A stretch of DNA of 64,000 nt from Candidatus Binatia bacterium (GTDB taxonomy: Bacteria; Desulfobacterota; Binatia; UBA1149; CAITLU01), in assembly GCA_035626675.1 (NCBI GenBank), contig DASPNH010000101.1, positions 3,546 to 67,545 on the forward strand. The letters are read 5' to 3'. A program made the translations under genes and the position numbers. The notes beneath the pieces were generated by a model that worked only from the letters and a program-made list of their open reading frames with translations, had not been told where the DNA came from and searched no databases. This document shows, in pieces, positions 39,715 to 47,087 of the stretch (its first letter is position 1; each line of letters begins with the position of its first letter).

Positions 39715-39735
39715 TTAAGGGGACTGTCCCCTTAA
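39715..39735. repeat. Perfect 21-bp palindrome TTAAGGGGACTGTCCCCTTAA
   Basis: It sits in the intergenic region between the convergent acyl-CoA dehydrogenase gene pair and moaA. A near-identical copy lies at 46985-47005. Confidence 0.9.
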
Positions 39736-39746
39736 AGACGCTGGGG

Positions 39747-40790
39747 CTAGCCGCCGAGCTGGTACATCTGGATTTTTTCGCGTTCGCGGCCCCCGGCGGC
39801 GAAGCGGTCTTCGGAGTAGCGGTCCTCGCGGGCGGTCCAGACGCTGCGCAGGAGCGCGCGCAGCTCGTCGTCGCTGGCTCCGCTTCGCATCGGGGTTTTC
39901 AGGTCCGTGCCGCCCGTGGCGAACAGGCACGTGACCAGCTTGCCGTCGGTGGTCAGGCGCGCGCGCGTGCAGTCGCCGCAAAACGGCTGCGTCACCGATG
40001 CGATGACGCCGATCTCCCCATTGTCGTCCAGGTAGCGCCAGCGCCGCGCAACTTCGCCGCGATAGGTTGCCGCCACCGGCTCGAGCGCGAACTGCGCACC
40101 GATGCGCCCCACGATCTCGCGCGCGCTGACGACTTCGCTGGCGTCCCAGCCGTTGAGCGTCCCCACGTCCATGTACTCGATGAAGCGCACGATGTGGCCG
40201 CTGCCGCGGAAGTGACGGGCGAGGTCGACGATGGTGTGGTCGTTGACGCCGCGCTGCACCACACAGTTGATCTTGATCGGCGAGAGGCCGGCCGCGCGCG
40301 CGGCCTCGATCGCATCGAGCACGAGCTGGGGTTTGGCGTCGCGGCCGGCCATTCGGCCGAACACCGCATCGTCGAGGCTGTCGAGGCTGACGGTGATGCG
40401 CTTCAGACCTGCGGCCGCGAGCGTAGAGGCCTGCTCCGCAAGCAGCACGCCGTTGGTGGTCAGGGTCAGGTCGGCCACGCCCTCGATGCCGCTCAATGCC
40501 CGGATCAGCGCGGGCAGGTTCGTGCGCACCAGAGGCTCGCCACCGGTCAGGCGGATCTTGACGGCCCCGGCCTCGACGAACAGCCGCGTCAGGCGCTCGA
40601 TCTCCTCGAAGCTCAGCAGGTCGGCCTTGGGCAGGAAATGGTAGCGCTCGCCGTAAATCTCGGCGGGCATGCAGTAGGGGCAGCGGAAGTTGCAGCGGTC
40701 CGTGACCGAGATGCGCAGATCGCGCAGCGGCCGGCCGCGCGTGTCGAGCATGCGTGGTGAGGCCTGGTTCGTGGCGTCCTGCTCGCCCAT
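39747..40790 (-). CDS. moaA: GTP 3',8-cyclase (molybdenum cofactor biosynthesis, radical SAM)
   Basis: The radical-SAM motif is CNFRCPYC and the C-terminal cluster motif is CGDCTRARLTTDG. The start is ATG 40790 or the longer form at 40826. Confidence 0.9.
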   Translation of the reverse strand: MGEQDATNQASPRMLDTRGRPLRDLRISVTDRCNFRCPYCMPAEIYGERYHFLPKADLLSFEEIERLTRLFVEAGAVKIRLTGGEPLVRTNLPALIRALSGIEGVADLTLTTNGVLLAEQASTLAAAGLKRITVSLDSLDDAVFGRMAGRDAKPQLVLDAIEAARAAGLSPIKINCVVQRGVNDHTIVDLARHFRGSGHIVRFIEYMDVGTLNGWDASEVVSAREIVGRIGAQFALEPVAATYRGEVARRWRYLDDNGEIGVIASVTQPFCGDCTRARLTTDGKLVTCLFATGGTDLKTPMRSGASDDELRALLRSVWTAREDRYSEDRFAAGGREREKIQMYQLGG

Positions 40791-40876
40791 GCGGGCATCA
40801 TGGTCGGGGACGCAGCGGGAGTCCATTGCGCCACGCGCGGCTTGTCCGCCGCCACCCGCAGGACTATGCAGGAGCC

Positions 40877-44380: not shown

Positions 44381-46918
44381 ATGCTTTCATTACGTTCCCT
44401 TCTTCGTGCCGCGGCCTTTGTCGCGGTGGCTGGTGCTCGCGTCGCGAACGCCGACATCGTCGCCGACCATGCCGACGACGTGTGCCCGCCCGCGACCGAT
44501 CCCTGCAACGTCACCCAGCGCATCGAGGTCGTCGACAACGCGACGCTCGATTTCGGCGGCCGCACCCTCGTGGTCAGCGGCAGCGGCGAGCTCGATTTCG
44601 GCAACAGGCGCGGAACGGTGCTGGCCGGCACCACCGCCGTCGGCGGCAGCGGCATCAACGCCGATCTGGACGACGTCGGTTTTCGCGCCACCGTCACGGC
44701 GCGGCGTCGCTGTTCGAACAACAATGCGGTGGTTTGCCTGCACAACGTCGACTGCGGAGCGGGGACCTGCTCGGTGGGAACGGGCAACCTGAGCATCACC
44801 GGTCCCGTCACCGGCAAGACCGGCAGCCCGGCCGACATCATCCTGAATGCAGCGGGCGACGTCTCGCTGGCAGCGGCCATCGACGTCAGCGGCAGCCAGA
44901 CCGAATCCGACGGCGGCAACCTGTCGGTGCGTTCCTACCTCGGCAGCGTCATCGTGACGGGGCCGATCAAGGTCGAGAGTGGGATCTTCGGATTCGGCGG
45001 AAGCATCAACCTGACCGCCGGGCTGGACGTCAATATCCAGACGCCGATCAGCGCCACCGGCGGCGACTTCGACGGCGGCGAGATCACGATCGAAGCAGGA
45101 CGCGACGTTCTCATCAACGTGCAGATCAACGTCAGCGCAGTGGGCGGAAGTGGCGGTGGCGGCACGATGGACGTGACCGCCGCACGCGACATCCTGCTGT
45201 CGGGCGGATCGGGCGCGGACCGCGTCGTCTTCCTTTCGGAAGGTCACGAGGACTCCTTCAGCATCGCGGGCGACGGCGGCGACCTGCTCATGTACGCAGG
45301 CCGCGACGTCGTAGTTGGGCAGTTCGTCAGCCTGTTATCGCGCGGCTCGACGCCCGACGGCTACGGCGGTGACGTCACGGTCAACGCAGGACGCGATTCC
45401 ATCGTGCACGGTACGCTGGAGGCGCTCTCTGCCGGCCAGCAGGGGGACGGCGGTTTCGTCGATCTGCGTGCCGACGGAGAGGTCCTCGCATCCAGCACCT
45501 CGTTGCTCAGCGTTGACGGCGGCAACGTCGGACTGATGGACATCGGCTCGGGCGGAGACATGGAGTTGGCCGGAGCGATAAGTCTGATGGGACGCACGGG
45601 GGGATTCGGCGGCTTCTTTACCGCTCGCGGCGGTGCCGAGCTGATCGTCGGCGGCGCGCTCACGGCCAATCGCGTGTCGGCCGAGATCGACCTCGAGGCC
45701 TGCCGCATCCACTTCACTTCGACGGCGCTGTGGAACAACAACTCGCAAGGCGGCACCAACCGCGTGCTCGCGCGTGAGAGCATGCGCTTCGACGCCGGCA
45801 GCTTCCTGCTGGCTCGCACCGGCGCGACGGCCGGCGAGAACATCCTCGTCTACCGCGACGAGGCCAAGCCTCCGATACTTGGCGGAACCATCACCCCCGC
45901 ACCTGTCCTGGAACTGGAGCCGGAACTGTCGGGCTGCCCGGTCTGCGGCAACGACGAAATCGACGACGGCGAGACCTGCGACGACGGCAACACCGCGGGC
46001 AACGACTCGTGCACGGCCGACTGCCAGCTGCTCGGCTGCGTGGAGCAGACGGTCGGAGGCTATCCGGCCAACCCCCTTTGCAACGACGGCAGCGAGTGCA
46101 CCGTCGACGCGTGCGACCTCGTCAACGAGGTCTGCACGCACGTCACCGACTGCAGCGACGACGTCGCGTGCACGCTCGACGTCTGCCAGGGCACCGTGTG
46201 CCTGCATACGCCGAACAACGGCGCGTGCACCGATGGCAACTTCTGCAATGGCACCGAGACCTGCAATCCCGCCAGCGGCTGCGTCGGCGGCGACGCGCCC
46301 AACTGCAACGACTCGATCGCCTGCACCACCGACGCCTGCAGCACCCAGCTCGGCGCCTGCACGCACGCTCCGGTGCATGCGATGTGCGCCGATACGTCCT
46401 TCTGCAACGGCGACGAGCTTTGCTCGGCCAGCCTGGGATGCGTTGCCGCGCAGCCGGCCACGCGCAACTGTGCCGATGCCTTCGCCTGCACGACCGATAG
46501 CTGCAACGAGCTCACCGACGCCTGCGACCACGTTGCCAGCGATGCCGCCTGCGAGGACGGCAACGAGTGCACGGTCAACACCTGCGAAGTGGGCCAGGGA
46601 TGCGTCAAGGAGCCGAGTGGTCTGCCCGAGTGTCCCGTCACGACCACCACGACGCTGCCCGACGAGCTGTGCGGCGATGCCACCGGGAACGGCGTGGTCC
46701 AGGCCAGCGATTCGCTTGCGGCGCTCAAGGCGGCCGTCGGCGCCGGCTCGTGCGCGGTGGAGATCTGCGACGTCAACGGCAGCGGATCCATCACGGCCAG
46801 CGATGCGCTTGCCATCCTCAAGGCGGCGGTGGGTCAGCCGGTCGAGCTGAACTGCAGCGGCGCCGCCGCCGGCGCCGAGGCCTCGACGACCACCACGACC
46901 ACGCTCGGAGAGGAGTGA
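44381..46918 (+). CDS. Large secreted protein with an N-terminal Gly-rich beta-helix-like repeat region, central Cys-rich repeats, a Thr linker and a C-terminal dockerin-like module
   Basis: The signal peptide reads MLSLRSLLRAAAFVAVAGARVANA. The Cys-rich repeats (C.DGN.CNG.E.C) occur 8 or more times. The C-terminus reads TTTTLPDELCGDATGNGVVQASDSLAALKAAVG...CDVNGSGSITASDALAILKAAVG. Confidence 0.75.
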   Translation: MLSLRSLLRAAAFVAVAGARVANADIVADHADDVCPPATDPCNVTQRIEVVDNATLDFGGRTLVVSGSGELDFGNRRGTVLAGTTAVGGSGINADLDDVGFRATVTARRRCSNNNAVVCLHNVDCGAGTCSVGTGNLSITGPVTGKTGSPADIILNAAGDVSLAAAIDVSGSQTESDGGNLSVRSYLGSVIVTGPIKVESGIFGFGGSINLTAGLDVNIQTPISATGGDFDGGEITIEAGRDVLINVQINVSAVGGSGGGGTMDVTAARDILLSGGSGADRVVFLSEGHEDSFSIAGDGGDLLMYAGRDVVVGQFVSLLSRGSTPDGYGGDVTVNAGRDSIVHGTLEALSAGQQGDGGFVDLRADGEVLASSTSLLSVDGGNVGLMDIGSGGDMELAGAISLMGRTGGFGGFFTARGGAELIVGGALTANRVSAEIDLEACRIHFTSTALWNNNSQGGTNRVLARESMRFDAGSFLLARTGATAGENILVYRDEAKPPILGGTITPAPVLELEPELSGCPVCGNDEIDDGETCDDGNTAGNDSCTADCQLLGCVEQTVGGYPANPLCNDGSECTVDACDLVNEVCTHVTDCSDDVACTLDVCQGTVCLHTPNNGACTDGNFCNGTETCNPASGCVGGDAPNCNDSIACTTDACSTQLGACTHAPVHAMCADTSFCNGDELCSASLGCVAAQPATRNCADAFACTTDSCNELTDACDHVASDAACEDGNECTVNTCEVGQGCVKEPSGLPECPVTTTTTLPDELCGDATGNGVVQASDSLAALKAAVGAGSCAVEICDVNGSGSITASDALAILKAAVGQPVELNCSGAAAGAEASTTTTTTLGEE

Positions 46919-46984
46919 CCGTCGTAGGGGACGGTCCCCTCGACGCCAAGGGTGGCCAGGCGGCTTGTAGCTTCCGAGAAAGGC

Positions 46985-47005
46985 TTAAGGGGACAGTCCC
47001 CTTAA
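46985..47005. repeat. Perfect 21-bp palindrome TTAAGGGGACAGTCCCCTTAA, with related copies AGGGGACGGTCCCCT at 46926-46940 and a half-site AGGGGACAG at 47033-47041
   Basis: It lies in the intergenic region between the secreted-protein gene and ilvD. It is the same element as at 39715-39735, differing only in the central base. Confidence 0.9.
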
Positions 47006-47087
47006 ATCCGACCGACAGTCGCCTCGCGAAAAGGGGACAGCCGCCTAGCCCCGCCGGGATGTTCGGGTATGCTGCGACGCCGGAGAG

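Follow-up and report, generated by a model that had tools for sequence, protein, structure and literature searches.

An extragenic palindrome of a Candidatus Binatia bacterium: a probable REP family dispersed by a tyrosine transposase (RAYT)

A 64-kb stretch of DNA from a Candidatus Binatia bacterium (contig DASPNH010000101.1, positions 3,546 to 67,545; hereafter the window, numbered from its first nucleotide) contains two copies of a perfect 10-1-10 palindrome, TTAAGGGGAC-N-GTCCCCTTAA, one of them in the spacer that precedes ilvD. The locus raises the question of whether such a dyad is the binding site of a regulator, a hairpin at the end of a transcript or a member of a dispersed repeat family. 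The first-pass annotation of this DNA proposed either an operator or a repeat akin to repetitive extragenic palindromes (REPs) and bacterial interspersed mosaic elements (BIMEs). REPs are small non-coding elements that form hairpins and are dispersed through intergenic DNA. In single-stranded, folded form they are recognized, cut and re-joined by an HUH-Y1 enzyme, the REP-associated tyrosine transposase (RAYT, or TnpA_REP), which is usually encoded once per genome and is itself flanked by the same repeats. The window palindromes most probably represent a REP family serviced by a RAYT, a reading adopted because the same sequence flanks RAYT genes in related bacteria. The second of the two earlier proposals is thereby supported in a more specific form, in that the palindrome adjoins RAYT genes of further Binatia and of Thermoleophilia. 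The basis for the assignment is the repetition of the element, its extragenic position, its presence/absence polymorphism, its hairpin potential together with compensatory variation, and its association with RAYT genes in two clades.

The first perfect copy (copy 1, 39715–39735) reads TTAAGGGGAC-T-GTCCCCTTAA, that is TTAAGGGGACTGTCCCCTTAA, and the second (copy 3, 46985–47005) reads TTAAGGGGAC-A-GTCCCCTTAA, that is TTAAGGGGACAGTCCCCTTAA. No strand is assigned to either, and the two 21-mers differ solely in the central base, T versus A, as had been noted before. Copy 2, located between them, had been described as a shorter version of the palindrome. Its core AGGGGACGGTCCCCT is indeed present at 46926–46940, but the full element is an imperfect 26-nt palindrome, likewise unstranded, that extends from 46920 to 46945 (CGTCG-T-AGGGGAC-G-GTCCCCT-CGACG) and in which a bulged T gives rise to GTAG at 46923–46926. 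A partial or singlet copy on the plus strand, AAAAGGGGACAGCCGCCTAG (47029–47048), includes the half-site AGGGGACAG (47033–47041) and resembles the unpaired AAAAGGGGACAGGCTAC that flanks the genes of a Nitrospira-like RAYT clade. Re-reading of the sequence placed all four of these elements where the first-pass annotation had put them. The core GGGGACNGTCCCC has three exact matches and one match with a single mismatch in the 64 kb. The chance level, obtained from 100 dinucleotide-preserving shuffles of the window, is a mean of 0.24 matches with up to one mismatch allowed, and four matches were reached in 0 of the 100 shuffles. No further TTAAGGGG or CCCCTTAA occurs elsewhere in the 64 kb. An Rfam search of positions 39500–47300 at permissive E-values gave only chance-level matches to the palindromes, and a literature search with the motif strings returned only hepatitis delta virus ribozyme and vector sequences.

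All window copies are extragenic and lie within two intergenic spacers. Copy 1 is located in the 128-nt spacer between ACAD2, the second of two acyl-CoA dehydrogenase genes (plus strand, stop at 39618), and moaA (minus strand, 39747–40826, stop codon 39747–39749), 97 nt past the stop of the former and 11 nt past that of the latter. These two genes are convergent, thus no promoter is expected at this site. The remaining copies occupy the 175-nt spacer between the gene of an 845-aa dockerin-like secreted protein (44381–46918) and ilvD (47094–48785). Copy 2 starts 2 nt past the TGA of the secreted protein gene (46916–46918), and two copies plus the partial copy form a cluster within 130 nt upstream of ilvD, with the orientation set by the central base alone. 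The partial copy is situated just upstream of a -10-like box of ilvD, TATGCT (47068–47073). The earlier description of copies that follow plus-strand stops and precede the next gene is accurate for the stops of ACAD2 and the 845-aa gene but not for the far side of copy 1, where the next gene is convergent. Similarly, the distance of 47 bp given from the half-site to ilvD is correct from an alternative ATG at 47088 and becomes 53 nt from the annotated start at 47094. Elsewhere in the window, a hairpin, ACGGGGACCGTACCCCGA (59733–59750), directly follows the stop codon 59727–59729; this could be either a degenerate member of the palindrome family or a small hairpin of separate origin.

The genes that accompany the palindrome were compared by all-against-all alignment of the open reading frames (ORFs) near the motif, followed by unbiased clustering, over 29 loci. 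ORFs of the Y1_Tnp family were found directly beside the palindrome at L005, from a Thermoleophilaceae, and at L022, a contig of a Binatia metagenome-assembled genome (MAG). At L022, TTAAGGGGACAGTCCCCTTAA, identical to window copy 3, lies 22 nt past the RAYT stop and is followed by TTAATGGGACTGTCCCCTTAG, and an inverted doublet, GAGGGACAGTCCCTC / AGGGACTGTCCCTC, lies upstream of the RAYT start. This layout is repeated in every close homologue examined: L036 (64% identical), L116–L119 (70%), L120 (69%) and L121–L124 (72%). Altogether, the RAYT gene is flanked by the same repeats at L022, L036, L037, L109, L116–L124, L005, L125 and L126, with clear inverted doublets adjoining it at L022, L120 and L121. 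In the Binatia-like contigs L022, L036 and L116–L124 the RAYT gene directly follows comM/Mg-chelatase, and this constant position at 64–72% protein identity argues for vertical inheritance rather than transposition. The RAYT stop codon in these contigs is in or beside the TTAA foot of the palindrome (cTTAAcGGGACTGTCCCCTTAG). A group of luciferase-like monooxygenases was also encountered, at four motif loci, and was judged irrelevant because the family is very common in these phyla and its distance from the motif is variable.

The flanks of 80 metagenomic RAYT homologue loci were then counted over 150 nt upstream and 300 nt downstream. GGGGACAG is present upstream of the gene in 61 of 76 loci and CTGTCCCC downstream in 53 of 72; both flanks carry their motif in 43 of 68 loci, against a background of 0.17 per kb. 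The Nitrospira-like majority of these loci have AAAAGGGGACAGGCTAC upstream and GTAGCCTGTCCCCTTTT downstream, which share half of the palindrome and carry GTAG. A second RAYT clade, from Thermoleophilia, is ~33% identical to P0121, the RAYT of L022. Its member at L005 is preceded by two copies of the 21-mer type, and those at L125 and L126 are preceded by four and two copies, respectively, of GGGGTC-N-GACCCC, in which an A:T pair is exchanged for T:A, a compensatory change that leaves the stem intact. Thermoleophilia also have a sister family of palindromes, AAGGGGTC-N-GACCCCTT or TTAAGGGGGGTCTGACCCCCCTTAG, at L020 (2018–2100), L125 (9850–9960) and L126 (~9870–9960). Its members adjoin RAYT genes and, at L020, lie near a GGGGAC-type copy of the same MAG.

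The 21-mers fold into a 9-bp stem with a triloop. The calculated energy of copy 1 is -12.5 kcal/mol as RNA, on either strand, and -7.7 kcal/mol as DNA; copy 2 yields -17.2 kcal/mol as RNA and -10.7 kcal/mol as DNA, and copy 3 yields -13.4 kcal/mol as RNA. The stem-loop that the first-pass annotation had envisaged is consistent with these values, and the 21-nt and 26-nt palindromes have the size and stem-loop form of REPs (~20–40 nt). Outside the 21-mer, in positions that the search pattern left unconstrained, the nucleotides at ±11 pair in 21 of 25 instances and those at ±12 in 17 of 25. At least three extra Watson–Crick pairs extend the stem in 8 of the 25 copies, versus 0.4 expected, and the sequence of these outer pairs varies among copies of one genome; the two window 21-mers show no outer extension. 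Copy-specific flanks that lengthen the stem point to a hairpin rather than to a duplex binding site. Some of the outer stems resemble old terminators, for example aaaacgggg...ccccgtttt at L003 and gcgtg...cacgctttt at L012, and hairpins already in place may serve as insertion sites, with the element entering their loop.

These folds could also belong to independent structural hairpins, acting as terminators devoid of a U-tract or as 3' stabilizers, that share their sequence by convergence or chance and involve no transposase. The stability of the window copies (-12 to -17 kcal/mol) is in keeping with that role, as is the location of a copy 2–11 nt from a stop codon at each locus, and on phage contigs the motif resembles an ordinary terminator (aaaAGGGGACTGTCCCCttt), at a frequency no higher than that of control palindromes. 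Nonetheless, this explanation is unlikely. The two 21-mers are identical at 20 of 20 specified bases within 64 kb, and the identity extends to the RAYT-flanking copy of another MAG, which is unexpected from convergence. The RAYT association, too, is strong. A Rho-independent terminator combines a GC-rich hairpin with a T-tract, whereas no T-tract occurs on either strand at any window copy, which bears out an earlier remark. A terminator scan that identified a canonical terminator at 42715–42743 called none of the copies.

The enzymes themselves were assigned by profile comparison. P0121 (187 aa) scores 85.6 bits on the NCBIfam model NF047646, 'REP-associated tyrosine transposase', and passes its cutoff of 80. 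P0241, the protein of L005, scores 62 bits, below that cutoff, and bears the NCBI name REP-associated tyrosine transposase. The best PDB match of the RAYT family profile is E. coli TnpA_REP (4ER8) with E = 3e-9. The HuH (NHFH), WQ and Tyr (RYVxxNP) motifs of the family are conserved, and the Thermoleophilia enzyme has NHVH, FQ and YVALNP in their place. The associated protein also belongs to Pfam Y1_Tnp, 'Transposase IS200 like', and the palindromes might accordingly be solo ends or miniature derivatives of an autonomous IS200/IS605-type element, comparable to palindrome-associated (PATE) or miniature inverted-repeat (MITE) transposable elements, rather than REPs of a domesticated RAYT. The presence of palindromes on both sides of the gene is compatible with such an origin, and the gene seems to be present more than once in the Thermoleophilaceae MAG BP_533 (P0241 and the partial P0254). 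This origin is quite improbable, however, in that the RAYT equivalog, and not IS200, is the family that the protein matches best, and the Tyr motif is YxxxNP in place of the Y---Q of IS200 transposases (Quentin et al. 2018, PMC6006769). Moreover, the gene of the Binatia-like contigs is always located after comM, and both of its flanks consist of a single motif in inverted copies, not of distinct left-end and right-end hairpins. The combination that marks an autonomous element of this type, namely multi-copy tnpA, Y---Q, distinct ends and variable location, was thus not encountered.

Comparison with related genomes shows that the copies are polymorphic. The closest relative found, L030/L031, encodes an ilvD product that is 92% identical in amino acid sequence and has a fully syntenic gene order. 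No copy is present in L030 at either site or anywhere in its 21.7 kb. The spacer before ilvD measures 75 nt in L030 versus 175 nt in the window, and copy 2 is contained in the ~100 nt that L030 is without; the TATGCT box and the ribosome-binding site region upstream of ilvD are retained. The Binatia-like L033, L034 and L035, with ilvD ~83% identical, have no copies either. The palindromes are present in the window and missing at the orthologous sites in L030, as well as from L033–L035, which marks them as additions specific to this lineage and not as conserved sites of regulation. An operator of a dimeric transcription factor, with clustered sites at ilvD and a second site of the regulon elsewhere, is by the same comparative data largely refuted and highly improbable: the perfect 10-1-10 dyad, the three sites or half-sites within 130 nt upstream of ilvD, the half-site abutting the region upstream of the conserved TATGCT box and a GGGAC half-site that recalls, at a different spacing, the DosR box would all suit it, yet copy 1 lies between convergent genes, four relatives have no site upstream of ilvD even where L030 keeps the promoter-like box, no gene of a regulator or regulon is found repeatedly next to the motif across the 29 loci, the motif flanks RAYT genes, and a hairpin agrees with both the complementary flanks, which differ from copy to copy, and the GGGGTC/GACCCC variant. 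A promoter position conserved upstream of orthologues, as an operator would have, was not found. Identity with the DosR box was rejected on spacing and context, and a DNA-uptake sequence and parS/matS-like chromosome sites were dropped once the RAYT linkage had emerged.

The distribution of the element was assessed by scanning the strict 21-mer across GTDB representative genomes. It was found at 23 loci, concentrated in MAGs of Thermoleophilia/Solirubrobacterales, one of which has matches on five contigs and another at four loci. Two loci are from Binatia and one from Vicinamibacterales, and the remainder are single matches scattered over unrelated phyla. Extra copies are frequently clustered 20–90 nt from the strict 21-mer, and MAG BP_533 has nine copies on five small contigs. 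Copies in other genomes are located at ORF ends, several of them between convergent ORFs. At L002, L005, L006 and L018 the gene upstream often has as its stop codon the TAA contained in the palindrome's TTAA foot; the element abuts or supplies the stop. In a gammaproteobacterial MAG of 30% G+C (L004, 4690–5300) the palindrome heads a composite repeat of ~100 nt that occurs twice, ~470 nt apart; a third core follows 280 nt beyond, and the second composite copy breaks the ORF of a GIY-YIG nuclease.

Several observations weigh against the REP–RAYT assignment. Classical REPs are defined by many dispersed copies per genome, more than 100, whereas the window has three full copies and one partial copy at two loci in 64 kb, and the strict 21-mer does not exceed five loci in any GTDB representative genome. 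The two 21-mers have TTAA feet and are without the 5' GTAG foot (GT[AG]G) and the stem bulge, and foot and bulge both matter for recognition by E. coli TnpA_REP; the only GTAG sequences are those of copy 2 and of the flanks of Nitrospira-like RAYT genes (AAAGTAGCCTGTCCCC). A perfect palindrome with a 1-nt centre is also the preference of a dimeric DNA-binding protein. No RAYT gene was found in the 64 kb by tblastn, and the case for a cognate enzyme comes from other MAGs. The insertion boundary is not definable against L030 because the spacers have diverged. Finally, control palindromes of the same composition reach 66 and 8 loci in viral contigs versus 6 for the target, and a link to phages was rejected on these counts. 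Since the controls are as common or commoner there, isolated matches in unrelated phyla may be ordinary hairpins; those in Ruminococcus, Desulfosporosinus and Pseudomonas may be such background, and only lineages with repeated or RAYT-linked copies should count as carriers of the family.

Under the REP–RAYT reading, a RAYT would be encoded in this genome and would have moved the window copies. Mobilization of E. coli TnpA_REP substrates and of IS200/IS605 elements reportedly takes place on single-stranded DNA, and the window copies may by analogy have been mobilized in the same way. They would now be passive 3'-end hairpins that, if they resemble E. coli REPs in function, could stabilize the moaA, ACAD2 and secreted-protein transcripts or could alternatively reduce read-through into ilvD. 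A more detailed model is put forward tentatively, as a possibility with the odds against it: the element would be a minimal, perfectly symmetric REP, a doublet reduced to a spacer of 1 nt and carrying TTAA feet in place of GTAG, whose core GGGG[A/T]C-N-G[T/A]CCCC is common to the two RAYT clades (from the different phyla Binatota and Thermoleophilia, only ~33% identical; the half-motif is found in Nitrospira-like relatives) and which prefers the loops or centres of pre-existing hairpins. Landing in such hairpins, for instance terminators, would explain the complementary flanks in a third of the copies. To our knowledge, REP–RAYT systems have been studied almost entirely in Proteobacteria. The present analysis adds a REP family and candidate enzymes in Binatota and Thermoleophilia, soil lineages that have not been cultured or have received little study. 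With its unusually small size, perfect symmetry, missing GTAG and clear compensatory variants, the hairpin is a compact substrate for the study of RAYT target recognition. For annotation, the consequence is that the dyad is not to be treated as a regulatory site of ilvD.

The gene map of the window (G+C ~67%) was derived from Pfam matches and from the public gene calls of contig ENA ERZ27257325 k141_798502. ACAD1, the first acyl-CoA dehydrogenase gene, lies at 37304–38479 on the plus strand ahead of ACAD2. Next after moaA is a gene of an FeS-assembly protein, followed by the gene of an M10 (matrixin-like) peptidase (41566–42603, minus strand) and that of 3-deoxy-D-arabino-heptulosonate 7-phosphate (DAHP) synthase, which starts at 42789. 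An ABM protein gene separates the latter from the 845-aa gene. The ilvD product, P0001 in the public annotation of a 'Candidatus Binatia bacterium' MAG, is 100% identical to that encoded in the window, and a gene of a major facilitator superfamily (MFS) transporter follows ilvD. The M10 peptidase gene is absent from the otherwise syntenic L030. Upstream of DAHP synthase, at 42602–42752 on the plus strand, a leader ORF, MSPATTSTCFWYFSSGELPGRIPARRRQP*, with an F-W-Y-F run is followed by a canonical terminator, GAGCCCCGGGAGAGAATCTCCCGGGGC, and a T-tract. The same arrangement of leader and terminator precedes DAHP synthase in L030, L033 and L035, with the runs FFWYF, VVWYFIF and FFWYVF, respectively, and Rfam gave only a weak His_leader match in this region. 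Judged from the sequences, the arrangement has the appearance of a transcription attenuator for aromatic amino acids that is conserved in Binatia.

Among known systems, the DosR/DevR box, TTSGGGACTWWAGTCCCSAA, resembles the window palindrome in its GGGAC/GTCCC half-sites within a dyad of ~20 bp. The half-sites are separated by 4 nt in the box versus 1 nt in the window, and context, conservation and RAYT linkage set the palindrome apart from this and other palindromic operators. A further comparison is with the REP/BIME elements of E. coli and their TnpA_REP (RayT/YafM; 4ER8). Both systems have a short extragenic hairpin palindrome that occurs singly and in clusters after genes, and a cognate HUH-Y1 gene flanked by the repeats in the REPtron layout; 4ER8 is also the best structural relative of the enzyme family by sequence. 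However, the window 21-mers have TTAA in place of the 5' GTAG foot, their stem is perfect, 9–10 bp long, with a tip of 1–3 nt, whereas the E. coli stem is longer and bulged, and the hosts are Binatota and Thermoleophilia, not Proteobacteria. The enzymes, too, are only distantly related to 4ER8, as the E value of the family profile indicates.

The REPIN–RAYT systems of Pseudomonas (Bertels & Rainey 2011, PMC3116915; Bertels et al. 2017, PMC5581495), in which REPs form doublets, share further traits with the Binatia-like contigs. The RAYT gene appears single-copy and stable in its position after comM and is flanked by inverted doublets (L022, L120 and L121), and related genomes differ in whether they carry the repeat. 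The window copies differ from REPINs in that they are single symmetric hairpins, not two REPs and a spacer, and the 21-mer resembles a doublet whose spacer has shrunk to 1 nt. In this respect they recall the 'double-foot' REPs of TnpA_Y1 subclass 2.4 and the REPs of subclass 2.7, which are symmetric with the same foot at both ends; an origin by deletion within an inverted dimer has been suggested for 'double-foot' REPs (Quentin et al. 2018, PMC6006769). The feet are TTAA/TTAA in the window versus GT[AG]G/C[TC]AC in that group. The NH[IFV]H, WQ and Y.xxNP motifs of the subclass 2.4 and 2.7 enzymes (PMC6006769) match the NHFH, WQ and YVLQNP of the Binatia enzyme, which on motifs rather than phylogeny would fit either subclass, the assignment being ambiguous. 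The Thermoleophilia enzyme looks 2.1-like, an equally ambiguous placement drawn from motifs and not from a phylogeny, and subclass 2.1 is listed as not REP-associated (Quentin et al. 2018, PMC6006769). The kind of element is already known, and the present family is a new example of it.

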